Below, in pieces: positions 434 to 63,968 of a stretch of DNA of 64,000 nt. The notes beneath the pieces are model-generated. The model was given only the letters and a program-made list of their open reading frames with translations, ran no database searches and had not been told where the DNA came from. The DNA is taken from assembly GCA_963843795.1 (NCBI GenBank), contig CAWJLW010000006.1, forward strand, positions 3,484,375-3,548,374, written 5' to 3'. Positions within the stretch are counted from its first letter, which is position 1, and each line of letters begins with the position of its first letter. The DNA is from an uncultured bacterium (GTDB lineage Bacteria > Armatimonadota > Abditibacteriia > Abditibacteriales > Abditibacteriaceae). Position numbers and translations under genes: made by a program.

Positions 434-481
434 AATTTTTAAGATTGAAATAAGGCGCTGCAAGTACTTGCGGAGCGAAAA

Positions 482-1192
482 CTATGTTTCGCTCGGGTTA
501 GTTTTCTTGGCATCTTCGATTTCGCGTAGTCCGCTCAGCGCGCGTTGCAGCCACATGATGACCAGAAAACGCGCGACAATAGAGAACACCATCGAGCCGT
601 CCCACGCGACGTTGCGGTGCATCAAGTTGATAATCAAATCGGCGACGGCGATGCCTAAACCCAATGATGCGCCCCACAATTTTTCTTTGTGCAATGCCCA
701 CGCGGCCAGAAAGAAAATTGGGCCAGTGATGAGCGGGCGCGTGACGCCGCCTTGCGCGAACAAGCTGAGACCGAGAATTAAGTCACCAACGCCGACGATA
801 ACTAAAAGCCACATCGCGTTGCGGATGTTTTCGCGCGCTGCGATAAAAGGTACCAGGGGCAACAAATGTCCGTCGTGCCACGCCACGATTTTATGCGACG
901 GGCGCGCGGCCAGAATTGGCTTGACGTAATCTTCATCTGCGGCGGGCAACGGTTGTCCGGGCTTTAAATCGGCAGGAATGGATTGCACACGCAAAGTTGC
1001 GCCATCGGGCAGAACGCGTTCGGCACCGGTTTCGAGTTCGTCGCGTTTGCCGACATCACCCAATTGCTTGCGGTCGAGGGAAATGGCGAACGAGCCACCC
1101 ATCAGCTCCGACACAACCGTTAAACGCGGTTTGCCCGATTCGTCTATGGCGAAAAAAGTACGTTGCATCGTTGAAATGAAAACCGCCGACAA
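482..1192 (-). CDS. Hypothetical membrane protein (about 4 C-terminal TM helices); start uncertain (1192 or 1168)
   Basis: 236-aa ORF, soluble N-half and hydrophobic C-half, co-oriented with rbsK and hslV. Confidence 0.7.
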   Translation of the reverse strand: MSAVFISTMQRTFFAIDESGKPRLTVVSELMGGSFAISLDRKQLGDVGKRDELETGAERVLPDGATLRVQSIPADLKPGQPLPAADEDYVKPILAARPSHKIVAWHDGHLLPLVPFIAARENIRNAMWLLVIVGVGDLILGLSLFAQGGVTRPLITGPIFFLAAWALHKEKLWGASLGLGIAVADLIINLMHRNVAWDGSMVFSIVARFLVIMWLQRALSGLREIEDAKKTNPSET

Positions 1193-1263
1193 TCAAATGC
1201 CCTGCAAGTACTTGCAGGGCATGATTTGCGTTTCCAGTTTAGCGCTTATTGTGCATCCGGCGT

Positions 1264-2208
1264 TTATTGCGAAGCCATCATTTGTTCAACGTCTTCGCGC
1301 GTCGGCATGGCGATTTGCGCCCCGTGTCGCGTCGCGGTTAGTGCCGCAGCCGCATTGGCAAAGCGCACGGCATCTTCCAATTGCTTGCCTTCGGCCAAAC
1401 CGCTGGCAATTGCGCCCGCGAAAGTGTCACCCGCCGAAGTGGTATCGACGGCTTTGATTTTAAAGCCTGGAACGCGCGTTGCGCCTTCTTGAGTGGCGAC
1501 CAAAGCGCCGTCTTTGCCCAGAGTGGTAATGACGTGTTTCACGCCCTGATCGAGCAAGGGACGGCAGGCATAAGCAACGGTTGAAGTGGCGACATCGGTC
1601 GCGCCGGTGAGAACGAGAATTTCGGTTTCGTTGGCAATCAAAATATCGGTGTATTCCAAAAGTTCGGCGGGGAGGGTGCGTGCGGGCGCGGGATTAAGAA
1701 TCACGCGCGTGTTGCTTTCGACCGCGATGCGGGCGGCGTGCAGCACGGTTTCCATTGGAATTTCGAGTTGTAAGATCATCGTCCGCGCGCTGTCGATGCA
1801 GGGGCGCGCTTTTTCGACATCTTCCGGACGCAAGTGCATGTTGGCGCCGGGAGCAACGACGATCTGGTTTTCACCATTATCATCAACGAAAATCAAAGCG
1901 ACGCCCGACGGCTCATTTTCATCCCGCAAAACGAATTGAGTGCCCAAGCCCACACGCGAAAAAGAGTTCATCGAAGCTTCGGCGAACACATCGTTGCCCA
2001 GACGCGCCACCAGTTGCGTTCTGGCACCCAACTTAGCTGCCGCCACGGCCTGGTTCGCACCTTTTCCGCCGGGATTAATGGCGAAATCAGCGCCCAAAAT
2101 CGTTTGTCCGGGTAAGGGGAGTTCGCGGCAGCGCACTGTCATATCCGCGTTGGATGAACCGACTACGACCACATCGCAGTCGCACTTGATCAATGGTGAT
2201 AATGCCAT
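1264..2208 (-). CDS. rbsK: Ribokinase (PfkB family)
   Basis: VVGSSNAD, PGGKGANQA, DTTSAGDTF motifs. Confidence 0.93.
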   Translation of the reverse strand: MALSPLIKCDCDVVVVGSSNADMTVRCRELPLPGQTILGADFAINPGGKGANQAVAAAKLGARTQLVARLGNDVFAEASMNSFSRVGLGTQFVLRDENEPSGVALIFVDDNGENQIVVAPGANMHLRPEDVEKARPCIDSARTMILQLEIPMETVLHAARIAVESNTRVILNPAPARTLPAELLEYTDILIANETEILVLTGATDVATSTVAYACRPLLDQGVKHVITTLGKDGALVATQEGATRVPGFKIKAVDTTSAGDTFAGAIASGLAEGKQLEDAVRFANAAAALTATRHGAQIAMPTREDVEQMMASQ

Positions 2209-4360: not shown

Positions 4361-4430
4361 ATTTGTCGATAAAGCGGCGTTGCAAGTACTTGCGTAAGTA
4401 CTTGCAACGCCGCTTTATCGATTCTTTTCC

Positions 4431-4994
4431 ATGAATCAAGCGCCCTGCCCACCCACGCCCTGGCATTTGCAGGGCGACGCCATTGCACTTTTCGAGCGTG
4501 ATGGCGTGCGTTTGCTGGTGCATTACACCCATTCTCCAGTGGGCGCTTACGATGAATGTGCTTTGGCTCAGTTACACAGTTTTCGCGCCCTGCAAGTACT
4601 TGCAGGGCGCTTTATTGCGCCAGTCATCGCTCCGACAGTTGTCGAAATGCAAGTTAATTCGCCACGTTCGATGCAATGCGGTCGCGCGCTGTGGGGCTTT
4701 CCCAAAACCTTAGCGGCCTTGAATTGGCAGAGCAATGGCACGCACATCGCATTTGAAGCTTCGGGATTTGAAGCCTCAATCCCCGAAGTGCCGCGTCAAA
4801 AGTGGCGCTTTCGTTGCGCGCCCTTTGGTTTGCCGGTGAAACTGCACGCTCATGTGGTGCAAGTACTGGCGGGAAGCGATGTGCGCGTGTCGATGAAGCT
4901 GCGCGCACGGGCGCGCTTAGCGTGGCGCGGACAACAGTGGGGAATTTTGTTAGAAAATTTTGATTTTGTTGTGGAAGCACCGCAAAAGCTGTGA
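4431..4994 (+). CDS. Acetoacetate decarboxylase-like family protein
   Basis: PPTPWHLQG, HYTHSPVGAYDE, GRALWGFPKTLA typical of ADC-like proteins. Confidence 0.7.
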   Translation: MNQAPCPPTPWHLQGDAIALFERDGVRLLVHYTHSPVGAYDECALAQLHSFRALQVLAGRFIAPVIAPTVVEMQVNSPRSMQCGRALWGFPKTLAALNWQSNGTHIAFEASGFEASIPEVPRQKWRFRCAPFGLPVKLHAHVVQVLAGSDVRVSMKLRARARLAWRGQQWGILLENFDFVVEAPQKL

Positions 4995-8769: not shown

Positions 8770-8779
8770 ACTTCTTCCC

Positions 8780-8813
8780 AACGGCTGTGCAAGTACTTGC
8801 ATAGCCGTTTTTT
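8780..8813 (+). terminator. Intrinsic terminator centred on GCAAGTACTTGC
   Basis: AACGGCTGTGCAAGTACTTGCATAGCCGTT followed by T-run, 10 nt after stop. Confidence 0.75.
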
Positions 8814-10836: not shown

Positions 10837-10864
10837 AACGGCCCGCAAGTACTTGCGGGCCGTT
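10837..10864. repeat. Perfect 28-bp palindrome centred on GCAAGTACTTGC
   Basis: AACGGCCCGCAAGTACTTGCGGGCCGTT between dnaN and recF. Confidence 0.95.
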
Positions 10865-12839: not shown

Positions 12840-12873
12840 AAAAACGTCCTGCAAGTACTTGCAGGACGTTTTT
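12840..12873. terminator. Perfect 34-bp palindrome with A/T tails
   Basis: AAAAACGTCCTGCAAGTACTTGCAGGACGTTTTT. Confidence 0.8.
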
Positions 12874-14247: not shown

Positions 14248-14331
14248 ATACTCTGATGCGTCGGGTTAGGGAACCTCCATTGACGCTGCAAGTACTTGCA
14301 GAGATGAAATTGTTGAAAATTGAGAGTTCTT

Positions 14332-15701: not shown

Positions 15702-17450
15702 ATGACTACAAGCGACCTGGCAAGTACTTGCATCACACGCCGCCACGTTTGCACGGCTTTGAAAAGCGCTGCAAGTAACTGCGCAAGTACCTGCAGCGTC
15801 GAATGTAACGATGCTTTCTGTAACGATGATTTCACGGTGCAGCGCGCGACGGCTTCGCGCGGTGAATGGACGAGCAATTTGGCGCTGAAGTTGGCGGCGC
15901 ATCTGAAAAAATCGCCCTCAGAAGTTGCGCGCGAATTGATGGAAGCGTTAAACCAAGCACATTACGTAGCATTAAATTACGACAATTCGCACGCCCAAGT
16001 ATTTTCACAGCATTGGCGTGTCGAGGAAGCGAGGGGTTTTTTGAATTTCCGTTTGGACGAAAAATATCTCAACGCGCAATTGAACGCGGCTCAGCAGCAA
16101 GGTGAGCGCTATGGGCGCACGCAAGTTCTGGCCGGTGACCGCATCAATGTCGAATGGGTTTCCGCCGATCCGACCGGGCCTTTGCCCGCGCACGCTGCGC
16201 GCATCGCGCTGGCTGGCGAAAGTTTGTGCCGCATTCTGGAAAGCGCGGGCGCGACCGTCACGCGCGAATATTTCCTCAACGATGACGAAACTTCGTCTAA
16301 ATTGCGCTTGATTGGTCACAGCGCTTATGTTTGGTATCGTTCGGCTTTCGATAGCGGTGCGGCGCGTGAAGCCGAAACCAGCGGCGAAATTTTGGGCGAC
16401 GAGTGGGTGCGAAGTGTCGCGCGCGAGGCCGTTCGTCAAGACGGCAATAAGTGGCTGCTTGCACCGCAAAGTGAAGCGCAGGCTCACTTCGCGCATCTGG
16501 CACGCGAAGCCGCTGTGCAGGCGCAGCACGAAGCCTTGGAAAAGCTTGGCGTGCGTTTCGATGTATGGAGCAGCGAAAGCGATTTATTGGCGCAGGGCCG
16601 CATTCAAGCCGTTTTGGACAAATTGCGCGCGCGCGGCCACGCCTACGATCGCGATGGCACTTTGTGGCTGGCTTCGACTTCGATGGGCGATGAAGCCGAC
16701 CGGCCTCTCACGCGGCGCGGCCGCCCGACCTATCTGGCGACTGATATCGCGTATCACGAGTTCAAATTCCAACGTGGTTTTGGTCGGCTGATCAACATTT
16801 GGAACAGTCAGCACTCCGCTTACGTGACGCGCACGCGCGCGGCTTTACGCGCGATGGGCCGCGATGCCGATGCGCTGGATGTTCTGGTTTGCGAAGGCGT
16901 GCGCGCCCGTCGCGATGGCATCGCAATTTCGGCTCAGGGCGCTAAAGTCACGCTCGATCAACTGCTTCAGGAATTTTCTCTCCCCGCGCTGCAATACTTT
17001 CTCATCGCGCCCAATTGGAGCGACATCGCCGTTATCGACAGCGAAACCGCCGGTCGCGACGACGAAACCAATCCGGCTTACGCGCTGCAACTTTTGCCTT
17101 CACGTTTAACGACTTCCATCGGCGAATTAGAGGTGAAAACCGATCCGGCTCTGCTGCGCGAAGATTACGCCGGATGGACGGCCAGCGAAAGCGAATTGCG
17201 CCGTTTGGTGGCGTTATGGCCCGACGAAATGGAAAGCGCAGCGCAAAATTTAGAACCGCAGCGTATCGCGCGGTTCGCATTGGAATTGGCTCAGGCAGCG
17301 CGCGAAGATTTGTCGCAAACGCGCGCATCGGAAACGAACAAGCGCGACGATGAAACTCTTAGCGCGCGCTTGCAACTGCTGCGTGCGGCGCTTGTAGTCG
17401 CCAATCAGGCGCTGAAATTGTTGGGCATCGCAGCGCGCAGCGAATTTTAA
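15702..17450 (+). CDS. Arginine-tRNA ligase-like protein with degenerate catalytic motifs
   Basis: ArgRS architecture (GFLNF, INVEWVSADPTGPL, REYFLND, TYLATDIAYH, DALR-like C-terminus) but HIGH and KMSK motifs altered. Confidence 0.85.
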   Translation: MTTSDLASTCITRRHVCTALKSAASNCASTCSVECNDAFCNDDFTVQRATASRGEWTSNLALKLAAHLKKSPSEVARELMEALNQAHYVALNYDNSHAQVFSQHWRVEEARGFLNFRLDEKYLNAQLNAAQQQGERYGRTQVLAGDRINVEWVSADPTGPLPAHAARIALAGESLCRILESAGATVTREYFLNDDETSSKLRLIGHSAYVWYRSAFDSGAAREAETSGEILGDEWVRSVAREAVRQDGNKWLLAPQSEAQAHFAHLAREAAVQAQHEALEKLGVRFDVWSSESDLLAQGRIQAVLDKLRARGHAYDRDGTLWLASTSMGDEADRPLTRRGRPTYLATDIAYHEFKFQRGFGRLINIWNSQHSAYVTRTRAALRAMGRDADALDVLVCEGVRARRDGIAISAQGAKVTLDQLLQEFSLPALQYFLIAPNWSDIAVIDSETAGRDDETNPAYALQLLPSRLTTSIGELEVKTDPALLREDYAGWTASESELRRLVALWPDEMESAAQNLEPQRIARFALELAQAAREDLSQTRASETNKRDDETLSARLQLLRAALVVANQALKLLGIAARSEF

Positions 17451-17453: not shown

Positions 17454-17487
17454 TTTCGCGCGTGGCAAGTACTTGCCACGCGCGAAA
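17454..17487. repeat. Perfect 34-bp palindrome centred on GCAAGTACTTGC
   Basis: TTTCGCGCGTGGCAAGTACTTGCCACGCGCGAAA fills the argS-like/rpe gap. Confidence 0.95.
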
Positions 17488-18173: not shown

Positions 18174-18258
18174 ATTTCAAAATTCCGCTGCGGAATGTAA
18201 TGCAAGTACTTGCGGTTGAGATTTGCGAAGTTTTGGGGCTTAGCGACGTTTTTAGCGT

Positions 18259-20058: not shown

Positions 20059-20110
20059 AACAACTAAAAACGCCTGGTGCAAGTACTTGCACCAGGCGTT
20101 TTTAGTTGTT
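20059..20110. terminator. Perfect 52-bp palindrome, probable bidirectional terminator
   Basis: AACAACTAAAAACGCCTGGTGCAAGTACTTGCACCAGGCGTTTTTAGTTGTT between convergent genes. Confidence 0.85.
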
Positions 20111-20571: not shown

Positions 20572-21519
20572 TCACTCGAAATCTTCCTCATCGGTGGGGC
20601 GCCTGACTACACGCCGCGTTGTATCAGCTTCAGCATCCCAAGATGGCACGCGTTGCAATGGTGTAGGCGAATTATCGGGCAATGCGGACAGGTTTCGGGG
20701 AGAAGAAATTTCTGGTTTCGCCTTTTCTATTTCAGATATCGCCCCTTCTGGCGATGCCAATGGCGAATCAGGTTCGCTCACGGTTGTTGAATTTGGGTAG
20801 GCAGCATTTGGTGCCGGCAGCTTGAACGCTGTTTTTTCGGCAACTGCGAATGCGCCCAGCACACCCGCGCCCAAAGCGTTGCGCGCTACACGACCCCAGC
20901 GCTCGTCCAACCAGCCCGCTGCCACCAGCGCTTCGCTGAAAGCCAGCGCACCCAAAACTCCCGCACCCAGCAAACTGGCGCGCCGCCACCACCATGGCGC
21001 GTTTTCAGAAGCACGATCAGGCGAATTTGCGGGCACAAAATGGGGCGTTGCGACATTAGGCGAGTAATCAGCGCGCGCGCCATGTGAATCTGAGGGCGCA
21101 GCCGGCGCGGCAAGTACTTGCCGCGCGCTTATCGTGGTGTGACTGTCAGAATTCTCATGTTCTTTGGCCAGAAAATCGGCGACGCGCAAAAATGCGCTCG
21201 ATAAATCGTTGCGCTCTTCGCCCTGACGCACCAAGGAAACGGCGAAAGGCGAAAATAAATCAGGTGCTTGCGCGAGGGCTTCGGGCAAACCGCGTCCCAT
21301 CGTCAATTCGTGGTCGAACTGATCGTACCATTCCAGCAGACGCGGATTTTTTGTCTGTGCACGCAAAACGCGCGTGACGCGCAAGATATCGACGCCCGCT
21401 TCCATCATGCCGCCGATTTGACGACAAACCGAAATCAGTTCGCGCGCACTCACCGTAGCGCGCGAACTGACCGCAGAATTCTCTTCCCTGTTTTCGGGAT
21501 TATTTGACACGTTCGACAT
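20572..21519 (-). CDS. Protein with a single T2SS-F/PilC-like domain, 2 TM helices and disordered tail
   Basis: RQIGGMMEAGVDIL...LPEALAQAPDLFSPFAVSLVRQGE...RVADFL; start overlaps the efp end, uncertain. Confidence 0.7.
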   Translation of the reverse strand: MSNVSNNPENREENSAVSSRATVSARELISVCRQIGGMMEAGVDILRVTRVLRAQTKNPRLLEWYDQFDHELTMGRGLPEALAQAPDLFSPFAVSLVRQGEERNDLSSAFLRVADFLAKEHENSDSHTTISARQVLAAPAAPSDSHGARADYSPNVATPHFVPANSPDRASENAPWWWRRASLLGAGVLGALAFSEALVAAGWLDERWGRVARNALGAGVLGAFAVAEKTAFKLPAPNAAYPNSTTVSEPDSPLASPEGAISEIEKAKPEISSPRNLSALPDNSPTPLQRVPSWDAEADTTRRVVRRPTDEEDFE

Positions 21520-22060: not shown

Positions 22061-22387
22061 AATAATCTCCCATCAATTAATTGTCTTTTATGATTGTCTT
22101 TATGTCCGCTCTCGGCACTCGCAAGTACTTGCAGGGATTTAAGATTTGAAGCGGGACAAAAAAAGGATAGCGCAACCGCTAACAATCGTCAAAGCAGCAA
22201 TCCATATCAGCCATGGGCTGTATCGACTTAGGTCAACGGCTCACCCCAGGCACAGATATTAATTTCAATGGCGGCATCGTGTTTGCGAGTACAGAGCTTT
22301 TTGATTGAATAATTTCTGAATCGCTCGTTCATTTTCCAGAAATATTAATTGAGCGAGTGCCATTCTATATTTTTGAGGAGCCACTTT

Positions 22388-23811: not shown

Positions 23812-23859
23812 TAAGCACAAAAGCGCGATGCAAGTACTTGCATCGCGCTTTTGTGCTTA
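23812..23859. terminator. Perfect 48-bp palindrome, probable bidirectional terminator
   Basis: TAAGCACAAAAGCGCGATGCAAGTACTTGCATCGCGCTTTTGTGCTTA between convergent genes. Confidence 0.85.
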
Positions 23860-26703: not shown

Positions 26704-26759
26704 AATACTGTCCAATTCTCTGATTGCACCGCGGTGCAAGTACTTGCACCGCCCTAATA

Positions 26760-27647
26760 TCAGGCGTTATCACGCGCCGCGCGTCCATCGGCCAGACCCG
26801 CTGTAACGGCATCCGTTCCCCAATCGATGCGCGCGCCATCCATCACTGGGCCTTCCACGCAAATACGTTGAAAACGCCCGTACTCATCGTGCGGATCCAG
26901 CATCGGAACAACGCAGCCATTGCACACACCAATGCCGCAAGGCATATTTTCTTCCATCGAAACCTGACACGCGACACCATATGCTGCGCACAACTTCGCC
27001 ACGGCCCGCAGCATTGGCCACGGCCCGCAGGCGCACACCACCAGTTCTCCGCGGCTGATGTTTCGCACTCTTCCTGCCGAGAGTGCGCTCAAGCGCTTTT
27101 CCAAGGGCAGTGTTACCAAGCCCTGTTCGCCAACACTGCCGTCCTGCGTAGCAATAGTTACATTGTCGCAGGCAACACGCAGAGCGGCCTCTTCAACAAT
27201 GTCCTCGCGCCCTCGAGCACCGACAAAGGCTTCGACGTTGAGTGTTTCACGTGAAACATGACCGCACTGTTTTTCTGCGAGAAATACCAGTGGAGGCACG
27301 CCAATTCCTCCGCCTACTATAATTAAGCGTTTACTTTCTGCTTGGAATGGTTTCCCCAAGGGCCCCAGAGCGTCCACCGTTTGACCCACTGATTTCTGTG
27401 CGACCAGTTGTGTGCCGCGCCCTTCGATGCGATACAACATTTCGAACCAGTCGTCGCCGCAGCGCAAAATCGAAAAGGCGCGCCGCAACAGTGGGTCAAA
27501 GCTATGCGCGGTCGGTAAGAGATGCATGTATTGACCGGGCTGAGCCGTTTGTGCGACCAAAGGCGAGTGCGCCCGCAGACGACGATAATGCTCTCCTACC
27601 TCTTCGTGCTGCAAAATTTCAAAACTGTGAGTTTTACCGTGAGTCAT
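26760..27647 (-). CDS. pyrK: Dihydroorotate dehydrogenase electron transfer subunit
   Basis: RRAFS, GPLG, GGGIGVPP, CGP, MPCGIGVCNGC...C [2Fe-2S] motif. Confidence 0.93.
   Translation of the reverse strand: MTHGKTHSFEILQHEEVGEHYRRLRAHSPLVAQTAQPGQYMHLLPTAHSFDPLLRRAFSILRCGDDWFEMLYRIEGRGTQLVAQKSVGQTVDALGPLGKPFQAESKRLIIVGGGIGVPPLVFLAEKQCGHVSRETLNVEAFVGARGREDIVEEAALRVACDNVTIATQDGSVGEQGLVTLPLEKRLSALSAGRVRNISRGELVVCACGPWPMLRAVAKLCAAYGVACQVSMEENMPCGIGVCNGCVVPMLDPHDEYGRFQRICVEGPVMDGARIDWGTDAVTAGLADGRAARDNA
27243..27258. promoter_or_regulatory. parS site inside pyrK
   Basis: Perfect TGTTTCACGTGAAACA. Confidence 0.9.
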
Positions 27648-27676
27648 TATGAAAGAAGTCCATCAAGCCGCTTGCT

Positions 27677-28312
27677 TCACACATTTTTTGTCTCATTGTC
27701 TTTACTGTCGGAAGGACTATATTCTGAAGCATTATTTGCTACATCAAGGTTTGCCAAATCAAGGTTTGCCACACCGCCTTCCTCTTCTATCTCATCTGAG
27801 TGCAGTTCTACATCGCTGGTATCGTGGTTTGAGGAGCCCGATTGGCGCTGTCGCTGCCGGCTGGTGCGTGCGATGCGTTCCAATAATTGGGCGAAGCGTT
27901 TGACATCATCAAAGCGCTGATAAACTGACGCAAATCGCACATATGCGACCTGGTCGAGCAGATACAATTTTTCCATCACGAGTTCACCGACTCGAGTGGC
28001 TGCGATCTCGTTTTTGCCATCCTGCCTCAGCACCGCTTCTATCTCCTGCATCATTCCGTCGATAGTATCCAGAGAAACCGGTCTTTTATTACAGGCCTTA
28101 ATGACGCCACGCCTCAGCTTATTGGCATCGAACTCCTCGCGGCGCCCATCTTTCTTAATCACATAGATTGGCGGCATTACGACCTGCTCCATGGTTGAGA
28201 AACGATGGTCGCAATTATCGCAATGCCGCCGCCTTCGCAAGCTGCTTCCGCCCGCCGCAGGCCGCGAATCGACCACACGCGTATCAGCACTGCTACATTG
28301 CGGACACTTCAT
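27677..28312 (-). CDS. nrdR: Transcriptional repressor NrdR with acidic C-terminal extension
   Basis: MKCPQC...DSR...RRRRHC..C..RFST, ATP-cone, AYVRFASVY. Confidence 0.96.
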   Translation of the reverse strand: MKCPQCSSADTRVVDSRPAAGGSSLRRRRHCDNCDHRFSTMEQVVMPPIYVIKKDGRREEFDANKLRRGVIKACNKRPVSLDTIDGMMQEIEAVLRQDGKNEIAATRVGELVMEKLYLLDQVAYVRFASVYQRFDDVKRFAQLLERIARTSRQRQRQSGSSNHDTSDVELHSDEIEEEGGVANLDLANLDVANNASEYSPSDSKDNETKNV

Positions 28313-28341
28313 AAAATTTCCTTGTCAATCATGCTGCTCAA

Positions 28342-28377
28342 TAATTCGGGCTGTTTCACGTGAAACAGCCCGAATTA
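28342..28377. promoter_or_regulatory. parS (28352-28367) embedded in a perfect 36-bp palindrome
   Basis: TAATTCGGGC-TGTTTCACGTGAAACA-GCCCGAATTA just downstream of parB. Confidence 0.92.
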
Positions 28378-28381
28378 GCTT

Positions 28382-29545: not shown

Positions 29546-29621
29546 GCTCGTTCCTTTGCTTTAAAAACTCGTTTTGCCAGCGATTTGCTTTATCGGGCCT
29601 TACCTAAAATAATGCGAGCCG

Positions 29622-30425: not shown

Positions 30426-30527
30426 AAATACTAAGTGTGGCTGAAACAATCCGCCGCGAAAACATAGCGGCCACGAACGCGCATGCCTTTATTATATTCG
30501 ATAGCCGCTCATCAAACATGAATTAAG

Positions 30528-30665
30528 AGTTTCACGTGAAACAAAAACAGGAATAGAAGCATTGAGTGTTTCACGTGAAACATACGGCGCGAACCTCTTG
30601 TATGCAAAAAGCCGCTGCAGACTTGCAGCGGCTTTTAGATGGCAAGCTGTGTTTCACGTGAAACG
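30528..30665. promoter_or_regulatory. Three parS sites upstream of parA
   Basis: AGTTTCACGTGAAACA 30528-30543, TGTTTCACGTGAAACA 30567-30582, TGTTTCACGTGAAACG 30650-30665. Confidence 0.92.
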
Positions 30666-35852: not shown

Positions 35853-35889
35853 ACATTCGCCGTGCAAGTACTTGCACGGCGAATGTTCA
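35850..35889. repeat. Perfect 40-bp palindrome beginning at the stop codon
   Basis: TGAACATTCGCCGTGCAAGTACTTGCACGGCGAATGTTCA. Confidence 0.95.
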
Positions 35890-36748: not shown

Positions 36749-36788
36749 GCGAAAAGGGCGCTGCAAGTACTTGCAGCGCCCTTTTCGC
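36749..36788. terminator. Perfect 40-bp palindrome
   Basis: GCGAAAAGGGCGCTGCAAGTACTTGCAGCGCCCTTTTCGC. Confidence 0.75.
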
Positions 36789-39764: not shown

Positions 39765-39835
39765 AAAATTGTCATGCAAGTTTGTGATGCCCTGCAAGTA
39801 CTTGCAGGACACACCACGGAATCATTGGGAAAATT

Positions 39836-41042: not shown

Positions 41043-41108
41043 TTGAATCAAGCACCCGATCGGCCGTGCGTTCATGCGTTCAGTCGACGTTGCTGCAAGT
41101 ACTTGCTT

Positions 41109-43262
41109 ATGCGTTTTCCCCGTTCTTTCGATTTGCGTTGGGCGCTGGCCGGTTCGCTGGTGGTGCATTTGTTGGTGCTGGCTTTGTTGCGCGGCCAAAC
41201 TCCGCTGCCCGAGCGTTTGGTAGAAATCGATCTCAGCAAATTGCCCGCGACGCCAACACCGCAACCTTTGCCCACACCAAAGCCGACCGAAGTTGTGCCC
41301 ACGCCAACTCCGCAAGTACTTGCCACACCACCCGTGCCCGAAAAATTGCCACCACCTCGCCGCATGGCGCAACTTCCCAAACCGACCATCCCGCCATTAC
41401 CCAAACCGGCGCAACAGCCAACCGCGCCGCCCAAACCGGTCAGAAAGCCGGAAATTCGGGCGACGGTTCCCAAGACCAAAACTCAAACTCGCACTGCAGC
41501 GCCGGGCCGCCAAATCACCAATCGACCGACCGACACTGGCTCTGCGCCCGCGCCAAAGCGCCCGACTACGGCTTACGATGGCCAGCGCGCGCTGGTGAAC
41601 ATTGCGCCCGATGCGCCTCGTGGTGACAATCTGGAAGCGGGTAACGCGCGCGATAACAACGCGCGCCCATCGCGCCCACTGACCGCGATGATTCCTCCCG
41701 GCGGCGAGCGTCCGGTGCCCAACTTGAAGCCGGATAATCCCTCGCCCTCGCCCCGCGGCTTGGATCACACGCGTCCGGCTGCTAATATGCCCGACAATGC
41801 CGCGCCCACGTTTAATTTGCGTCGTTTCGGCACTACGACCAGTGCGCAAGACAAAGCGCTGGGCGATGCCAAAGGCGGTTCACCGCGTGGGCGCAATGAG
41901 GAATTGGCCGGCCGTGCGGGCGCGGGCGGAATCAAATTGCCGTTTTCCGTTCCGCGTCGCGGGGGCGATAGCGCGCCTGCGAGCAGCCCGACTTTATTGG
42001 CCAACAAAAGCGATGAAAGCGCGTCCAAAGTCAGCGGTGTTGATGTGACGCCTATTCGGCCCGGCCAGCGCATCGCCTCGCGCGATACTGGCGCGGGAAT
42101 CAACAGCGGTGGCGGAACTGGTTTCGACAGAAGCGGCCCCAATCGCGCCGCTTTCAACACGGTTCCCGGCAGCGGTTTGGGCGCTTCGCGCGGCGATGGA
42201 ATTGGCGGCGCGCGGGGCAAACGCAGCGGTGGAGGTGGCGAAATGGCGGGCGGCGGTTCCAGCGGCGGTGGCTTGCGCATCGGCGGCAGCAATGGTGGAA
42301 ATGGGCGCAGCGGGCCTCGCTACGCGGCCAACGGTGGTTCGCCGTTTGGTAATGGTGGCAATGGCAGCGGCGTTGCTGGAAACGGAGGTGCCGGTGGCGG
42401 AAGCGGCGCTGGCAAGGGGGGCGGACCGGGCGGTCCCGGACGCGGGCCACGCTTGGCACGGCGCGGTTTTGGTGATGGTGAAGGCGGTGGTTTTGGTGGA
42501 CCGGGCTCCGGTGGCGCGGGCGGACGCGGCAAAGGTTTCGGGCCGGGCCTGAGTCAGGGCGGTGGCAAAGGTGGCGGAAACGGCAATGGTGGCGATGGTG
42601 GAAGCGGCGGACTGGGCAACGGTGGGCGCGGTAGAGGCGATGGCGCCGGGGATGGCGATGAAGCTGGCGGCGGAAATCGCGGCGGCGAAGGTGCGGGCAA
42701 TGGCAGCGAAAGGCGCTTGGCGTTAGAGCGCGGGCGCTTGAAAACTTCGTCCGAATCGGGACGCGAAATCGGTCGCGGCATCTGGTCGCCGGGCCTAATC
42801 GGCACGTTTTATCAAGATCCCGATCAGGGTTTGCTCGATCCCGGTCATGCCATCGACTGGCCAGTTTTGGGTGCGGCAGGTTCCAAAAAGGTCACAGAAC
42901 ACACCAATCAAACTATTGATTTCGATTGGGGCATCGACGCGCCTTTGAAAGGCATGAAAGGCGTTTATTGGAGCGTAGTTTGGACGGGCCGCATTTTCGT
43001 GCCTAAAACCGATGAATATCGTTTCTTTTTGGAAGATGTGGACGATGGCGGGCGTTTGTATCTGGACGGCGAGCGCATTATCAATACGTGGCAGGTGCAG
43101 CGTTCGTCGCCCGGCAGCGGCAAAATGAAATTAGAGCGCGGCCCACACACGATCAAATTGGAATATGTGCAGGGCCCGGCCACCGCGTCCTCGGTGCGCT
43201 TGATGTGGGAATCGACTTCGTTCCCGCGCGAACTCGTCGGTTCGTATATTCCCGGTTCGTGA
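41109..43262 (+). CDS. TonB/TolA-like anchored Pro/Gly-rich protein with C-terminal PA14 domain
   Basis: TM anchor SLVVH, Pro-rich stalk, Gly-rich region, IDFDWG...WTGRI...DDGGRLYLDG...IKLEY PA14 signature. Confidence 0.82.
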   Translation: MRFPRSFDLRWALAGSLVVHLLVLALLRGQTPLPERLVEIDLSKLPATPTPQPLPTPKPTEVVPTPTPQVLATPPVPEKLPPPRRMAQLPKPTIPPLPKPAQQPTAPPKPVRKPEIRATVPKTKTQTRTAAPGRQITNRPTDTGSAPAPKRPTTAYDGQRALVNIAPDAPRGDNLEAGNARDNNARPSRPLTAMIPPGGERPVPNLKPDNPSPSPRGLDHTRPAANMPDNAAPTFNLRRFGTTTSAQDKALGDAKGGSPRGRNEELAGRAGAGGIKLPFSVPRRGGDSAPASSPTLLANKSDESASKVSGVDVTPIRPGQRIASRDTGAGINSGGGTGFDRSGPNRAAFNTVPGSGLGASRGDGIGGARGKRSGGGGEMAGGGSSGGGLRIGGSNGGNGRSGPRYAANGGSPFGNGGNGSGVAGNGGAGGGSGAGKGGGPGGPGRGPRLARRGFGDGEGGGFGGPGSGGAGGRGKGFGPGLSQGGGKGGGNGNGGDGGSGGLGNGGRGRGDGAGDGDEAGGGNRGGEGAGNGSERRLALERGRLKTSSESGREIGRGIWSPGLIGTFYQDPDQGLLDPGHAIDWPVLGAAGSKKVTEHTNQTIDFDWGIDAPLKGMKGVYWSVVWTGRIFVPKTDEYRFFLEDVDDGGRLYLDGERIINTWQVQRSSPGSGKMKLERGPHTIKLEYVQGPATASSVRLMWESTSFPRELVGSYIPGS

Positions 43263-43265: not shown

Positions 43266-43305
43266 ACGAAAAGCGCTCTGCAAGTACTTGCAGAGCGCTT
43301 TTCGT
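43266..43305. terminator. Perfect 40-bp palindrome, probable bidirectional terminator
   Basis: ACGAAAAGCGCTCTGCAAGTACTTGCAGAGCGCTTTTCGT between convergent genes. Confidence 0.85.
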
Positions 43306-44307: not shown

Positions 44308-44359
44308 ACAAAAAGCGCGCTGCAAGTACTTGTGCAGGTACTTGCAGCGCGCTTTTTGT
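44308..44359. terminator. Double-core hairpin (22-bp stem) downstream of glgC
   Basis: ACAAAAAGCGCGCTGCAAGTAC-TTGTGCAG-GTACTTGCAGCGCGCTTTTTGT. Confidence 0.8.
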
Positions 44360-45767: not shown

Positions 45768-45878
45768 GATAAATTTGGAAATTTGAATTGAATTTTTCGA
45801 GGCTTTGATAAGTAAACGTGCCGGAGATGCATAAAAAGCGTGCTGCGAGTACTCGCGCAAGTACTCGCAGCACGCTTT

Positions 45879-46325: not shown

Positions 46326-49300
46326 TTATGGGGTTTGCGCGAGCAAATCGGGGGTTAAATTTTCGTTATTTTCTAATTCGCCAGCGATTTCACTGGCGAA
46401 TTCGCTATTAAGTTCTTCGGTGCTATCGGAGGTTTTATCGAGCGAGCGTAGCGGCAAGCACAGGACGAAGGTGGTGCCCTTGCCTTCTTCCGATTGCGCA
46501 CTGATATCGCCGCCGTGATCTTGCAAAATGCGGCGCGTAACGGGCAAGCCCAAACCTGAACCGGAAAGTTTGGTAGAAAAGAATGGATCGAAAATTTGTT
46601 TCAGGCTATTTTGTGAGATGCCGACGCCGGTATCGCTGATCAAAATTTCGACAAATCGACTGTTGGGATTTCTGCTGTGAGGGTCGTCTTTAATTTGATG
46701 AATTTGCGCGGCCTGTTCGCAGCCGCTGTGGTCGAGATCGGTGAGGCGCGTGCTGACGCGGAGCGTGCCACCTCCCGTCATCGCCTGTGCGCCGTTGCGC
46801 GCAATGTTCAAAACCGCTTGTAACAAGCGGCTGCGGTCGAAAACGACCGGCGGCAAATCGGGTGCAAAGTCGCGCACCAGTTGGATATTGCCGCCGCGCA
46901 GATCGGCATCGGCCAGCAGCAGGGCATGCTCAACGACATCATTGAGCGAATGCGGAGACAAGTTGAGTTCGCGCGGGCGCGCCATGTCCAGCAAATCGGT
47001 CAACAATTCTTCCAAACGCTTCACTTCATCGACGATAATGGCGGCTTTGCGCGCGACACCTTCGGCATCATCGGGCTTGCGCAAAACGCCGCGCGCAAAG
47101 CCGCCAATGGTGGAAAGCGGATTGCGAATTTCGTGCGAAACGCGCGCCGCCATCTGGCCCACCGCGACCAAACGTTCGGCGGAAACCACTTCGCGCTGCG
47201 CTTTTTGCAAGGCCTGATAAGTCAGGGCGTTTCCAACGGTCAAACCGGCTTGCTGAGAAAGCGTATCGAGCAGTTGAACATCATCATCATCGATATGATT
47301 TCCCGAATACAGATTATCCGCCAGCACTACACCGACCAAACCATCGCTGGTCAAAAGCGGGGCAACGGCAATTTCGCTCGCGGTAAAAAGTTGTGAAGCG
47401 GCTTCGTATTGTGCGCGCTGCTCTTCGTTTAGCTCCTCGCTGGGTGCGAACAGGTCTGCAGGCGTGGCGCAGATAGCGCTGCCTTCGTCCATCACCTGTA
47501 CAAATGGAGCCAGAGCAGGGTTATCGAAATCGAGTTTGATCGCGCGCGTGAAATTTTGCAGCGGCGTCTGCGACGACGGGTCGAACTTGCCCTGAAAACT
47601 ATCGGCGCCCGCTAAAATTTCCTGCAAGCTGGGATCGCGCTGCGACATTTCGTGCCAAATTTTTCCGGCTTCGTCGGGCGACGACGGCCCCAAGGCCATC
47701 GCGCCTTCAAGAAAAGCGCTGCCTTCGCCTTCGGATCGCGTATGACGCAACAGCACAAAAGCGCGATTGAAGCCCAGTGAGGAACCCGCAGTGATACAGG
47801 TCAAAACCGTATGCAGCACGCGATCAATATCGAGCGAAGCCTGAAAGAAACGCGAAATTTCGTGCATCAATTGCAACTGATGCGTTTTGCGCCAGCGCAG
47901 CGTAATATTGATTAACAGCAGAACCGCTTTGGCTTCGCCACGAAAATACACGCGGAAAATACGCGTATCAAAAACGAAATGGCTATCGTTGGCCCACACC
48001 TGAACTTCAGGCACTTCGCGCGCGATGCCGTCTTCGGTCACCTGCCGAATCGTGGATTCGAGATCGTGTTTATCGATCAGATTTTGCCCGAATGCTTGTG
48101 CCATCGGTTGCCCGACCAATTGTTCGCGCTCCATGCCCAGCACTTGGCACAAGCGCACGTTCACTACTTCCATCGTGCCCTGCGTATCGACGACTAAGAG
48201 CGAATGAGACATCGTATCGAGCAGCGTTTGATGAAACTGATTCAATTCTTCGATTTCGCGAAACAAACGGCTCGAATGCAAATGCGAAGCGATAATGGTG
48301 CACGCGGTTTCCAACGCGACGGCATCGCGCGCATCAAAGGCAATCGCGTCCTGACATTGCACTGCGACTACACCCATCACGCGACCTTCGGAAACCACCG
48401 GCACGCACATTTCAGCGCGCGATTCCCGATAAACGCCGGGCGCTCGCTCGCTTTGCTCATCACCGACATTGGTGCGGTCACGCGAATAATGCAAAGTCTG
48501 CCCGTTTAACGCGGCGCGCCCCGGCAACCCCAACCCCAGCGGATGACGACCGCCCGGCGGCACCGCCAATCCGTAACCGCCCGATTGTGCGACCGCTACG
48601 AGTTCGCCGTCGGGCACCCCATTCGGTGCGCCTTCGTGCTGCGTTTCGTGGTCAGCCTGTGCAGTGCGCGAGTTTTGCGGCGCGTTGATAACGGTGTTGA
48701 GCGCGCTTTTACCCTGCGATTCCAGCGAAAAGAAAGTCACATCGCACTCGCGAAAATGGTTCTGAATCGCAATCGTTGCGCACTGCAGAAATTCTTCGAG
48801 AACCGGATTATCCAGCGCGCAACGCTGCACATCGTTAATAAGCGATAAATGCTGGGCGCGGCGCTGCTCCTGCAAAAAAAGCGCTCGATAGCGTTCTTCC
48901 GATTGTTGCAGCTCACGCGTGCGCGAAGCCACGCGCTCTTCCAGCTGTCCGGCGTAGGATTGCAATTCGCGCTGGCTTTGGCGCAACTGTGTGACATCGC
49001 GCAAAATCGCCTGCGCCACGCGATTGCCATCAACTGTAATCCAGTTGCACGAAAGCGAAACCGGCACTTCCAAACGTGGCCCGCGATTGAGGCGACGACC
49101 GCTGCGCTCCATGCCCACCGTGGGCAAATTCGCATTCGCGCCATTGCGGGCCGAAGCGTAATTAAGCGGGTCTTCTGCAAGTACTTGCGTGTCGTTGGGC
49201 CCCGTCCTGGCCGATGCATCCGAATCGGGAGGATTGGCGCTGGCTTCCGTTTCCGCACCAGCATCAGATTCGCTTGGAGCCTTTTCAATCGGACCGGGCC

Positions 49301-49997: not shown

Positions 49998-50108
49998 AAA
50001 AAAATTAGAGCCGTGCGAATTCAGTGCGTTTTCGATGCCTTGCAAGTACTTGCGGTGTGGCCCTTCACGCAAGTACTTGCAAGGCACGTATTATCAACTA
50101 AATCACGA

Positions 50109-51140: not shown

Positions 51141-51295
51141 AAAGAGATAATTCCTCGAAAATCAGTTTCTATGCGCCTTTTTGCGCGCCGTTAGTATGCT
51201 GCAAGTACTTGCAGCATGGCGGGCACGCGCCGCAATGGGCCGCTTCAATTCCTGATACGTTCCTCATAACACCAAACGAAACTCCGGTTTCGCCG

Positions 51296-52383: not shown

Positions 52384-54471
52384 TTACCCTTCAATCGGCT
52401 CCAACCGCAAATAATCCAGCCCGAACAGCGCGCCCGCCGACTGGGCGTTGGTCCCATTGACTTTAACCTCAAATTGATTATTTTTATCTTTGAGAGCGAA
52501 AATGCCCAGCTCGATTTCGGGCGTGATTGTCACTTCGGGCGCGTAGAAATCGCGCGGCTCCCCAATTGTGCGCCCATTGATTGACAATTGATGGACGCCG
52601 TAATCGCGCGCTTTGAGAAAGCGACCGAAAACGCGATAGCGTCCGGGGGCGGGCGCATCGAAATTTAAGCGCAGTTCTTCACCAATTTGCAGCAGATCGT
52701 GCCACCACAATTGTTCGCCGCCGCTGAGACCTTCCCACGCTTGAACATTGGCCTTGGCACTTTGCGAACTGTTACTCGCGACGCGCATCGTTTCACCTTC
52801 AATTGCCCCCGCCACTTTGGGTGCGCCTTCATATTCGGGCATGGCAAGTACTTGCAGGTCGCTGGGGCGCAGTGGCGCGAAGCTGTCGGCGGCTCCGGGC
52901 TTGGCATACCAGTAGGCAACGGTCGCGAGGTTGATTTTGGTTTCGACCCAGTGCGACAATTCCATATCGAACTGCATGCTTTGCTCGAAGGGAATGCGGT
53001 CGAAAATATGAAAGCGCACATCGCTGGCGCGGCCCCAGTGACCGCGCCCCGGCCCGCAACTGCCCGGCCCATCGGCGCGCGGTTGTGCGTGATAAGCATG
53101 CGTGAATTCGGTCGTGTCGCACCAGGCATAGCCGAAATAATCTTCGCTGCCAGTGCCAAACCACGATGGGAAACTTTCGCCGTCGACATAAACTTTTTCG
53201 TCGCCTTCGCCCCACCATTTCACGTTGGGATTATCGACCGCATAAGACAAGCCGGCGAAAACGCCCTGACCTTGGGCACCCAACATCGTGAAATCGCGAA
53301 ACGGGCGTGTCGCGATGTCGTGACGCGCGATGAAATTAGCGTGAAAGTGCATCGAATTCGGTGTCCACACATAAGGCTTGGTGCCGAGTTGCCCGTTCAG
53401 CTTTACCGCTTTGGCGCCCATATTCTGCACGCTCACCCGCGCACTGCGCGCAAACGGCATCACCCAGTGGCTCCACATTTCGCCGCCTTCGGTAATGCCC
53501 GAAGGCAGCGCGCTATAAGGATTTTGGCCGGGCGCAGTGCCGAAAAAATCGCCGAGGGGCGCTTCGACGGTTTCTTCGCCATCGAAATTGAAGCGCAACA
53601 CCACGCCGCGTAACGCTTCATCGGAAATATCGGAATTGGTGCGCATCAGAAAATCAGTAATCGCCAGCGCGCCCTTCCATTCACCCAGCGTTTGCGTCGC
53701 GCCCGCAGCCAAATTTAAATCGAACTTGCGCGTTTGGTTCGGCGTGACGCCTTGAGCGCGCGGATTTTCCAAACGCGCGGCGGTGGTTTTAATTTGCGGC
53801 GCGAATTGGTTCAAGTGCGCGCGCTGAAAAGTTTCGACCGGCGTGTTCTTTGGGTAAGTGCGGTAAGCGATGGTGTAATAAATATCGCCGCCATCCATTG
53901 TAATCTTGCACGATTTCGCGTAGGCAATTGGAAAATACAGGTTATGGCCGCGTGCGCGTTCGCCTGCCATCGGCATTGGAAAACCCTGAACTTTGCCATC
54001 CAATAATTCTTTCATCGGCGCTTCGATGGCGGGCGTTATTGCGCCATCGAGATAAACGCGTAAGGTGCCGTCAGGGTTGGCCGACCAGATGCGCACGACA
54101 GCGCCCGGCCCTTGGGCGTCCATCATCACTTTTTCCTGGCGTCCATCGCGCTCTTCGACGCGCAAATACTGCCCATGATCGTTGTTGGCGAACCAATCCC
54201 AGCGCGGAGCATTGGACGTGCGGTCGTAGGACGAAAATTGTTTGGTGGTGTAACTAGCGCTGGGAAATTCGGCCATCGAACCCAAATCGGCCATTTCACT
54301 TAACAGGCTCGCGGTTGTGATTTGGTGCGCTGCAAGTACTTGCGTTTGCACTTGCGCCTGCGCCCTCACGCGTGGCGATTGCGTGTTCGTCCACAACGCG
54401 CCCAACGCACAGCCAAAAACGGTTAGTGCAATGATTCGGCTCGGTGAAACTGTGGGAAATTTTTGATTCAT
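52384..54471 (-). CDS. Exported GH172 (DUF2961) glycoside hydrolase with C-terminal beta-sandwich
   Basis: QFSSYDR, GPGAVVRIW, PLGDFFG, MPF, WWGEGDEK, GTGSEDYFGYAW. Confidence 0.88.
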   Translation of the reverse strand: MNQKFPTVSPSRIIALTVFGCALGALWTNTQSPRVRAQAQVQTQVLAAHQITTASLLSEMADLGSMAEFPSASYTTKQFSSYDRTSNAPRWDWFANNDHGQYLRVEERDGRQEKVMMDAQGPGAVVRIWSANPDGTLRVYLDGAITPAIEAPMKELLDGKVQGFPMPMAGERARGHNLYFPIAYAKSCKITMDGGDIYYTIAYRTYPKNTPVETFQRAHLNQFAPQIKTTAARLENPRAQGVTPNQTRKFDLNLAAGATQTLGEWKGALAITDFLMRTNSDISDEALRGVVLRFNFDGEETVEAPLGDFFGTAPGQNPYSALPSGITEGGEMWSHWVMPFARSARVSVQNMGAKAVKLNGQLGTKPYVWTPNSMHFHANFIARHDIATRPFRDFTMLGAQGQGVFAGLSYAVDNPNVKWWGEGDEKVYVDGESFPSWFGTGSEDYFGYAWCDTTEFTHAYHAQPRADGPGSCGPGRGHWGRASDVRFHIFDRIPFEQSMQFDMELSHWVETKINLATVAYWYAKPGAADSFAPLRPSDLQVLAMPEYEGAPKVAGAIEGETMRVASNSSQSAKANVQAWEGLSGGEQLWWHDLLQIGEELRLNFDAPAPGRYRVFGRFLKARDYGVHQLSINGRTIGEPRDFYAPEVTITPEIELGIFALKDKNNQFEVKVNGTNAQSAGALFGLDYLRLEPIEG

Positions 54472-55504: not shown

Positions 55505-55675
55505 GTCGAGTAAAGCGCTTCGATTGGAAAAGCGTCTAGCAAGTACTTGCGGGAACCAGCACTTGAGAACGCCAAAAGCGGCCGCGCGATAAAGATAAAT
55601 ATGTGGAAAATTGGATGCAACTACTTTAACCAACTCGCGACTGAAATGTTGCGCGTCGAAAGTGAATTCGAAAAA

Positions 55676-57271: not shown

Positions 57272-57309
57272 CATCCAGGCTTCTGCAAGTACTTGCAGAA
57301 GCCTGGATG
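57272..57309. repeat. Perfect 38-bp palindrome centred on GCAAGTACTTGC
   Basis: CATCCAGGCTTCTGCAAGTACTTGCAGAAGCCTGGATG. Confidence 0.95.
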
Positions 57310-60544: not shown

Positions 60545-60866
60545 AAAAACTCCCACACAAATTATAACCAACAGGCTGCAATTTGCTGTTTGAACGTTCG
60601 CTGGCTTTCCACGAACGCCGCAAGTACTTGCCGGTGTGTTGAGCGCAGAATGCGGGCAAGAATCGCTGCAAGTGCTTGTGTGGGGCTTTTCACCCATTAC
60701 AAATCCTGCCATAAAAACCGCAGCGCACGGGTGCGCAGCGCCTTTATACTTAACGCAACCGAACATTCCTTTCCGACACCTGAGTGTCGATTTGAAACAC
60801 CTGACACGCCTTGTAAGTGCTGGGTGCAAGTACCTGCAGGCATCAAAACCTTTGCAAATTTTCGCT

Positions 60867-62774: not shown

Positions 62775-62958
62775 AATTTTTTGAGTTTGGCGAACTGGCA
62801 AGTACTTGCAGGCCATTCCAAAGTGCTGCATATTATTTGGCAGCGATATTTTGAAAACGACGGGAAACGCAGTTTTAAAAAGCAGGTTGCCAGGCCAGTT
62901 AAAAAGTAGTTAGAACGCAGGTAAAAAAAGTAGGCAGAAGAGAAGGCAAGAAAGCGCG

Positions 62959-63813
62959 ATGGCTCAAATTTTCTCACCCAGTTCCAATGTGGTTGCCAAG
63001 CTCAGCATCGTCGGTGCCTTGATGGCAGTGCCGGCGTTGGGTGCTTCCATTTACGGCATCAACATGGTGTATGGCTACAAATACTATGTTCCGGTCGAAC
63101 AACCGGTGCAGTTTTCGCATAAACATCACGTCGGTGATGATGGCATCGACTGCCGCTATTGCCACACTTCAGTCGAAAAATCGTTCAGCGCCGGTATGCC
63201 CTCAACGCATACCTGCATGAGCTGTCACTCGCAAATCTGGTCCGATAGCCCGGAATTGCAAGTGGTGCGCGCTTCGTATGCCAGCGGTCAGCCGCTGCGC
63301 TGGAACCGCGTGCACGACATGCCCGATTTCGTTTATTTCAATCACTCGATTCACATCAAAAAAGGCGTCGGTTGTGAAACCTGTCACGGTCGTGTGGATG
63401 AAAAGCCACTGATGTGGAAATCGCACTCGATGACGATGTCGTGGTGTTTGGATTGCCATCGCCAGCCCGAAAAATATTTGCGTCCACGCGAAGCCGTGTT
63501 TACGATGGGCTACGTGCCCGGAAAAACCACAACCAATGCCGCCGGTTCGATGGCGTTGGAGCCGAGGTCGATCAAAGATACGGTGAGTGGTCGCCAAGCA
63601 GCACTCAAGGGCATCACCTACGAACAATTGCGCGAAGGCGAAGAAAAAGGCGAAGCTGGCGCGAAGGGCGAAGCCGGCGCGAAGGGCGAGGCCGGCGCAC
63701 AAGCCGAAGCGCATGGTGGCATGACGCAGTTGCAAATCGGGCTGGATTTAAAGCGACAATACAAAATCCGCTCAGCGCGCGAACTGACCGATTGCGGCAC
63801 CTGTCACCGTTAA
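62959..63813 (+). CDS. actA: Pentaheme cytochrome c, alternative complex III subunit ActA
   Basis: MAQIF, QPVQFSHKHH, five CxxCH motifs, PDFVYFNHSIH. Confidence 0.9.
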   Translation: MAQIFSPSSNVVAKLSIVGALMAVPALGASIYGINMVYGYKYYVPVEQPVQFSHKHHVGDDGIDCRYCHTSVEKSFSAGMPSTHTCMSCHSQIWSDSPELQVVRASYASGQPLRWNRVHDMPDFVYFNHSIHIKKGVGCETCHGRVDEKPLMWKSHSMTMSWCLDCHRQPEKYLRPREAVFTMGYVPGKTTTNAAGSMALEPRSIKDTVSGRQAALKGITYEQLREGEEKGEAGAKGEAGAKGEAGAQAEAHGGMTQLQIGLDLKRQYKIRSARELTDCGTCHR

Positions 63814-63968
63814 AAGGTCAACATCAGAACGCCAGCGCTATTGAAGCGCAAACGTTAAAAGATCACGCAAGCAAAAGATCACGCAAGCACAGGCAAGTAC
63901 TTGCAGCGCACCGGCACGTACTTGCGAGAACAAATACAGTTGGGTTTGTAGGACAGTTAAGGAAAAAG

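Follow-up and report, generated by a model that had tools for sequence, protein, structure and literature searches.

What keeps a perfect 12-bp palindrome in place at thousands of positions in a bacterial genome? The question is raised by a 64,000-nucleotide stretch of contig CAWJLW010000006.1 (hereafter the window), which comes from an uncultured member of the Abditibacteriaceae (Armatimonadota) with a genome assembly (G000) of 4.30 Mb in 11 contigs, most coordinates being cited here on contig C6. In the window the strand-symmetric word GCAAGTACTTGC, built around the palindromic core AGTACT, occurs in 39 exact copies between positions 460 and 63904, compared with 0.01 expected from shuffled sequences, confirming the ~39 copies counted by eye in an earlier note on this DNA. 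We conclude that the 12-mer is a real, maintained and lineage-specific system, of the same kind as the cyanobacterial highly iterated palindrome HIP1 and the DNA uptake sequences, with dialects of its own and a two-sided helical signature. Its best explanation is a self-DNA tag that would be driven by natural transformation and read by a protein dimer, a reading to which we assign a probability of roughly 45%.

Copies with at most two mismatches number 57 in the window (2.9 expected) and mark 34 of the 53 called gene junctions, including dnaN/recF (position 10845), while 11 of the 39 exact copies are inside called genes. Genes were called for this analysis (3,453 genome-wide), with approximate starts. 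This distribution agrees with the earlier note, which had placed copies at most junctions as well as in genes; eleven of the twelve near-copies that it listed indeed have one or two changes, but the one at 5838 has three. Its statement that the window encodes no transposase, integrase or methylase was borne out by Pfam searches of 49 of its called proteins, and an Rfam search of the window gave no match. The genome-wide system that it proposed was examined by counting k-mers against Markov models: G000 contains 2,567 exact 12-mers on all 11 contigs, compared with 0.12 (order 3) to 7.4 (order 5) expected, and the word is the top palindromic 12-mer of the genome. The copy at 8789 is spanned with 0 differences by a short-read contig of public run X1, which contains just 15% of the words and whose independence from the assembly is uncertain, and 33 loci in other metagenome assemblies, found with a 22-mer and belonging to other species (~70% identity to G000 where aligned), bear the identical word. 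Given the copies on all 11 contigs, the X1 contig and the 33 loci elsewhere, the word is not an assembly artefact.

The copies are spaced more evenly than chance would have it. Density in G000 is 0.60 per kb for the 12-mer and 0.63 per kb for its 10-mer (0.60-0.75 per kb overall), compared with 1.0-1.2 AGTACT per kb in relatives, and bins of the main contig, the first and last excepted, hold 47-83 copies per 100 kb. At 5-50 kb the counts vary less than random ones would (variance/mean 0.52), gaps longer than 4 kb number 80 against 125 ± 6.5 expected, and coding copies lie a median of 1,059 bp from the nearest intergenic copy, compared with 692 ± 30 bp for random coding positions. The four longest copy-free stretches, of 26-33 kb each, are mobile or injection-system islands: a cluster of insertion sequences (IS), a VirB conjugation region of high GC content, a contractile-injection gene cluster, and, next to a tRNA-Ala gene, IS elements with a type I restriction-modification remnant. 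A prophage-tail region is likewise copy-poor. The word-free injection cluster (C3:1-32000) encodes sheath, tube, baseplate and an AAA ATPase, and the VirB/D4 conjugation genes (C6:3610001-3623414), with 69% GC at a contig end, represent either a recent element or an assembly chimera.

The DNA around the word carries a physical signature. A/T content oscillates outward from the dyad on both sides, with peaks at ~15, 26, 36 and 47 bp. Around 651 coding copies these peaks have frame-corrected z scores of 12.4, 5.5, 4.1 and 2.4, and the phasing is most pronounced at third codon positions (z 10.9) and absent around 224 similar peptides encoded without the word. Coding copies, divergent copies and intergenic copies with short arms all give a period of 10.4-10.6 bp, the background AA/TT period of G000 being 11.1-11.2 bp; the signal consists of AA/TT steps and is absent around 1,940 other GTAC sites. 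Moreover, the distances within 160 close pairs of copies keep to the helical repeat (Rayleigh Z 19, period 10.65), and relatives have the same flank phase, more weakly. Phased A/T tracts on both sides, also at synonymous positions, suggest a dimeric, DNA-bending reader, pointing to the word as the centre of a ~90-bp site with helix-phased flanks.

Comparison with relatives indicates that the conserved element is the core and not the 12-mer. The exact 12-mer occurs 0-3 times in each of 30 relatives, which is chance level, whereas AGTACT is bimodally distributed over 27 family genomes, with 2,813-4,733 copies in six (the carriers), 48-285 in eight and 1-33 in 13. RAGTACTY exceeds 356 copies in only five of 251 genomes of the phylum, a sample without G001, and all five are Abditibacteriaceae (2,695-4,371 copies). 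Dialects derived from 12-220 kb of sequence per relative genome are CAAAGTACTTTG in G001, TCGAGTACTCGA in G009, G015 and G038, and CGAGTACTCG in G012, and two metagenome species with 1.2 AGTACT per kb (18 and 7 loci, two duplicates dropped) have the dialect core CAAGTACTTG, giving five arm variants in total around a fixed AGTACT. The 12-mer as the unit of the system, as the earlier note had it, thus gives way to a core whose arms differ between species. In the two metagenome species, which are 79% identical, 47 of 72 sites occupy the same positions, and AGTACT is kept in 94 of 118 cases (80%), compared with 30% and 34% for control hexamers; it is the best-kept hexamer (rank 1 of 733), with a small bias because each locus was chosen for one site. 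Lineage specificity and active maintenance, both proposed in the earlier note, are supported by these results. The word is also dispensable: G017, which has no motif, falls together with G012, G009 and G015 on a dnaN tree (support 96/97), indicating a loss among carriers and hence that the word is not essential to the lineage. Scans with a 16-mer found six single matches in viral contigs and at least 36 single matches in 36 different species genomes, which is chance level among the matches listed.

The sites arise largely by point mutation in place. Protein alignments with relatives have no nearby gap at 34 of 49 G000 coding sites, identity is 0.38 at aligned coding sites compared with 0.51 in their flanks, three of nine coding sites aligned to G001 are shared, and related species differ by one- and two-base gains and losses of sites. 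Covariation between the two arms is missing at degenerate positions in relatives, and G000 has few half-sites, which together argue for read-out of the double-stranded sequence by a dimer, not of a hairpin.

By gene context, the 2,563 classified copies comprise 755 in genes (29%), 1,248 in tandem, 288 in convergent and 265 in divergent gene intervals, and seven at contig ends. Convergent intervals are the most densely occupied, with their 288 copies in 71 kb. Within genes the word is read in three frames, as QVLA (496), CKYL (144) and ASTC (115); the QVLA peptide is 15-fold enriched in G000 (567 vs 38 expected), and the rare codons of the motif are used in 555 of 937 QVL. Perfect, locus-specific palindromes of at least 28 bp extend from 490 intergenic copies, a T run accompanies 384 of these, and 499 of the 551 such palindromes in G000 have the word at their centre. 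Long arms are found in ~19% of all copies, the share being 64% for convergent, 23% for tandem, 8% for divergent and 1% for coding ones, and four example hairpins fold with a GUAC loop (z -5.5 to -11.9). No -10 box was found at a fixed offset from the G000 copies. The position of the word at the tips of terminator hairpins probably represents a secondary co-option.

How could such a word spread and be kept? On the reading that we favor, a two-fold symmetric bending protein would recognize the core of 10-12 bp on double-stranded DNA within the ~90-bp site, and would act in natural transformation at the level of uptake, processing or recombination. Fragments with a site would be taken up or fixed more often, and this drive would create the word by point mutation wherever it is tolerated, up to about one per kb. 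A change of specificity in the factor would rewrite the arms, giving rise to species dialects around the fixed AGTACT, and terminator-hairpin use would follow. The dimer as reader and transformation as the step at which it acts are both inferred. A transformation-driven self tag is favored because the 12-mer matches uptake sequences in density, evenness, share in genes, mutational origin, terminator use and dialects. The cyanobacterial HIP1, GCGATCGC, is reported to raise transformation in the available parts of two studies (10.1101/2024.09.10.611283; PMC13756078), which provides a palindromic precedent. G000 itself encodes comEC, comEA, dprA and a type IV pilus cluster.

Several observations weigh against this reading. 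Known uptake sequences are not palindromic (PMC2817400), and their known receptors are pilins. Competence genes are found family-wide in carriers and non-carriers alike (dprA in 29 of 31 genomes, comEA in 29 of 31) and therefore do not discriminate carriers, and ComP was matched in none of the five carriers searched. Symmetric phasing to ~47 bp on each side suits a cytoplasmic wrapping protein at least equally well, and a word that organizes the chromosome would likewise be evenly spaced, conserved and missing from islands. In addition, a gap lies near 15 of the 49 coding sites, compared with 9% of background windows, so some copies may have arrived with small indels. Among the competence genes, dprA was unmatched in G017 (84% complete), the member of its genus without the motif, where comEC is an open frame, and in G001 (63% complete). 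Minor pilins are family-wide and DUF1559-like, the pilin fold being assigned by profile and feature searches, and a gene of the G000 pilin cluster (C6:393066-394959) is in four short pieces, possibly through long-read frameshifts.

The candidate families were checked one by one, with the G000 proteome not annotated as a whole, and no reader was found among them. The dedicated factor postulated by the earlier note was not found; neither a tyrosine transposase associated with repetitive extragenic palindromes (RAYT), nor an orphan methylase, ComP or a ParB paralogue was found to track the word. HU is single-copy in five of five genomes and is not linked to the word, the distribution of a ParB paralogue does not follow it, and a histone fold was matched neither in G000 nor in any of five genomes searched. 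Tandem-AP2 proteins (C6:2124483-2125031 and C6:1248447-1248965), which score below the PF00847 cut-off and were assigned their fold by profile and feature searches, occur in 18 of 27 family genomes, including all six carriers, G006 and G034 but also ten non-carriers. They are a weak candidate: G009, G015 and G038 hold just the paralogue of an AGTACT-poor genus, and the proteins are near-identical in G034 and G035, yet only G034 has an abundant word. The two proteins are stand-alone, and their relatives are named from Acidobacteriota and Chloroflexota.

Two families of Proteobacteria are known to take up DNA in a sequence-specific manner, and HIP1 in cyanobacteria has been unexplained for 30 years. 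The 12-mer could, although we regard this extension as rather doubtful, represent a third, independently evolved system of sequence-specific uptake or recombination, outside Proteobacteria and Cyanobacteria, with a dimeric bending receptor for a palindrome and ~90 bp of phased flank, and with a specificity that switched several times within one family, thousands of sites being rewritten each time. If true, the HIP1 and DNA uptake sequence puzzles would be joined in one mechanism. Helical phasing on both sides gives a concrete physical lead, one that does not appear in the consulted passages of the HIP1 literature. Because carriers, non-carriers and dialects stand side by side in one family, gene profiling should be able to find the reader, and the drive model can be tested. 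No published 12-mer of this sequence was found in the literature searched, a scope that left out most subscription journals and supplements, so that a supplementary k-mer table could hold the word, and among the titles listed on Abditibacteri genomes none treats an AGTACT word.

Other abundant words occur in the family and may share the mechanism of the 12-mer. G006 has a one-sided word, AGTACGGTCGA, with 584 matches in 520 kb (~1.1 per kb), mostly as 24-bp inverted pairs and without replichore skew (42:34 and 8:9); it has AGTAC and TCGA in common with the G009 dialect, and G006 has no Y1 transposase match. G034 has an abundant word, CACAAAAAATGA (43 in 60 kb); the non-palindromic word CCACAAAAAATGAAG occurs there at ~0.7 per kb in both orientations, and is missing from 29 kb of the close relative G035. 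That G006 and G034 have non-palindromic words, with single copies and inverted pairs and no bias between replichores, counts in favor of the transformation reading. In G007, G016 and G018 an abundant CAGCCACG(T/C)C word is found singly and in spaced inverted pairs. GTAC and CTAG are almost eliminated in genus g5 and part of g2 (observed/expected 0.0-0.2); RAGTACTY is also scarce in two other families of the phylum, so the dearth of GTAC in sister genera is not family-specific.

Of the alternatives, the one that survives best, although we consider it unlikely, is that the word is a site of chromosome architecture, maintained through purifying selection about once per kb to manage supercoiling and used either for high-affinity bending and wrapping by a dimeric nucleoid protein or as a preferred gyrase site. 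The phased flanks of coding, intergenic and divergent copies, the helical spacing of close pairs and the high density between convergent genes all fit such a role. For gyrase, with the 4-bp stagger placed on GTAC, the type II topoisomerase preferences -4G/+8C, -2A/+6T and +1G/+4C (PMC12324340) all agree with the G000 word, and -6C/+10G, a preference given in the part of PMC10117906 that was available, is present at 63% in G000. The arms of the known gyrase motif, itself symmetric, have a period of 10.75 bp (PMC6379681). Each of 29 matched genomes of the class has a single gyrA/parC-type gene, implying that one type IIA topoisomerase serves all its functions. However, these preferences hold in G000 and the two metagenome species, only partly in G001, and not in G009 and G012: +6T is at 2-5% in G009 and G012, and +8C at 3-24% in G001, G009 and G012. 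The arms of the gyrase motif lie 20-66 bp out, but the wave here is strongest 15 bp from the dyad and has died away by 47 bp, and no GyrA column parts five carriers from 16 non-carriers. For a nucleoid protein, none of HU, a histone fold, the ParB paralogue or tandem-AP2 tracks the word, and 21 of the 27 genomes in the family manage without the word. A kb-scale period was also missing from G000, where a Fourier test, differing from the published damped-sine method, gave no peak above a spacing-shuffled null.

Improbable in our view is a methylase-coupled ratchet, as in Elhai's model of HIP1, in which an orphan methylase marks GTAC or AGTACT and repair converts near-matches into the word. The core does contain GTAC, a known methylase target (PMC10273834), and G000 encodes one orphan beta-class methylase (C6:2517365-2518135; closest solved relative M.RsrI) with an orthologue in all six carriers. 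However, over the 27 family genomes this orthologue is whole in 20, broken in two and unmatched in five, and it is present in 12 of the 13 genomes with 1-33 AGTACT sites, its putative target region being alike in carriers and non-carriers, so that the methylase option raised in the earlier note is not supported, the gene being distributed independently of the word. The gene is kept across most of the family in changing neighborhoods, and pooled hexamer counts of genomes with and without it gave no clear target. C5 and Dam-type methylases, Vsr and PabI had no match in G000. One-mismatch copies have changes in GTAC too (35 vs 46 per position), which is not protected in the way described for the HIP1 centre (PMC4390886).

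Similarly hard to sustain is a defence tag, by which a nuclease or restriction-like system would spare word-rich DNA in the manner of Chi or of an anti-phage licence and degrade DNA without the word. Even spacing and absence from mobile islands are expected of such a tag, and nucleotides 100001-112000 of coliphage 121Q contain 37 AGTACT compared with 4.1 expected (~nine-fold), which shows that selection for the core is possible where phage and host meet; phage Goslar has 0 AGTACT in 12 kb. But the phage word is without the arms of the 12-mer, 71% of G000 copies are intergenic, the non-palindromic word of G006 has no replichore polarity, and no candidate system was found.

That the word is a REP-like relic spread by a RAYT, another option of the earlier note, is largely refuted and very improbable, since, although many copies sit in hairpins and G000 has one RAYT-like gene (C6:751600-752450), this gene is flanked by its own GTAG-tagged REP hairpins (~10-15 in the genome, unrelated to the 12-mer), the arms of the 12-mer are locus-specific, sites originate by substitution, and Y1 genes occur in 28 of 31 genomes whether or not these have the word, with none found in G006. 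An RNA element, acting as a terminator or stabilizing hairpin with a GUAC loop, is just as implausible: the centring of long palindromes on the word, their T runs and their strong folds speak for it, but most copies lack long arms, the arms do not covary, and DNA-phased flanks are also found in coding and divergent copies.

Within the window, arms are longest in two perfect palindromes centred on the 12-mer between convergent genes, one of 52 bp (20059-20110, word at 20079), which as RNA folds into a hairpin with a GUAC loop (-39.9 kcal/mol), and one of 48 bp (23812-23859, word at 23830). Arms of 14 bp flank the words at 35864 (35850-35889), 36763 (36749-36788) and, between convergent genes, 43280 (43266-43305); 13-bp arms the word at 57285 (57272-57309); 11-bp arms those at 12851 (12840-12873, a hairpin before serS) and 17465 (17454-17487); and 8-bp arms the word between dnaN and recF (10837-10864). 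The copy that X1 spans caps a terminator-like hairpin with a T run (8780-8809). Doublets comprise a head-to-tail exact and one-mismatch copy at the tip of a hairpin 3' of the transketolase gene (4382-4405), two one-mismatch copies (44322-44345), a two-mismatch and a one-mismatch copy (45845-45868), two exact copies 27 bp apart at 50042 and 50069 (50042-50080), and an exact copy followed 21 bp on by a one-mismatch copy (63893-63925). Exact copies in called genes are those at 2631-2642 (transketolase, CKYL frame), 4592-4603 (with a 7-bp additional arm), 21110-21121, 33323-33334, 35036-35047, 35495-35506, 37763-37774, 41312-41323, 49177-49188, 52844-52855 and 54332-54343. Intergenic exact copies lie at 460-471 (tandem genes), 1204-1215 (with a 7-bp additional palindromic arm), 14288-14299, 18202-18213, 26736-26747, 39794-39805, 51201-51212 and 62798-62809. 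Three further copies are called intergenic with some uncertainty, at 15720-15731 (within the longest argS open reading frame, start uncertain), 41095-41106 (possibly the 5' end of the next gene) and 55539-55550 (gene start uncertain). Divergent genes flank the copies at 22121-22132, 60620-60631 (starts uncertain) and 33113 (33103-33134, 10-bp arms). The last of these terminates a 6.4-kb stretch, from 26748 to 33112, that is free of the 12-mer and contains parB (28382-29545) and parA (29622-30425). Five palindromes GTTTCACGTGAAAC, which we take to be parS-type, surround parAB at 27244, 28353, 30529, 30568 and 30651, and the same word is clustered near dnaN in G002 and G010.

Compared with known systems, the 12-mer resembles parS, matS and NBS in being palindromic like these sites of dimeric proteins, but they are regional and number few to tens, while the 12-mer is uniform and parS is here another word, with five copies at the origin. 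It differs from Chi in being palindromic, and the one-sided G006 word shows no replication skew. With REP/RAYT elements it has abundant extragenic hairpins in common, but its arms share no sequence, there is no insertion signature and the RAYT has other REPs. A gyrase site is likewise two-fold symmetric with 10-11-bp periodic flanks, and the G000 word fits three of its preferred pairs; the gyrase motif, however, is degenerate and does not form thousands of perfect words, its amplitude profile differs, and GyrA of the carriers is unchanged.

The closest parallels are HIP1 and the uptake sequences, and the earlier note's likening of the 12-mer to both stands for every testable genomic feature, but not for palindromic symmetry, which uptake sequences lack. 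HIP1 and alternate HIPs are also hyper-abundant palindromes (300-2700 per Mb in the sections of PMC4390886 available, and ~600-1200 per Mb here) that spread by substitution, vary between species, and are conserved beyond control words. The 12-mer is longer (10-12 bp) and mostly intergenic, its centre is not protected, its flanks are phased, and no co-distributed cognate methylase was found for it; HIP1 has a long-range period of tens of kb according to the portion of PMC5861425 seen, whereas the Fourier test gave no kb-scale periodicity here. From the DNA uptake sequences (DUS) and uptake signal sequences (USS), the 12-mer differs in being a perfect palindrome that needs both arms and of which one copy forms a hairpin tip, in its two-sided and longer phasing, in the absence of ComP matches, and in its phylum. 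In other respects it is strikingly like them. Both occur about once per kb (0.80-0.89 per kb for USS/DUS, with 34.5% of meningococcal DUS in genes, in the available part of PMC2817400), are evenly spaced, under-represented and frame-biased in genes, originate by mutation and are found in terminators. Both also have dialects around a fixed core, as in the Neisseriaceae (PMC3630211, in part), phased tracts, as in the T tracts that flank the Haemophilus USS (PMC3458573, in part), and a host with competence genes.

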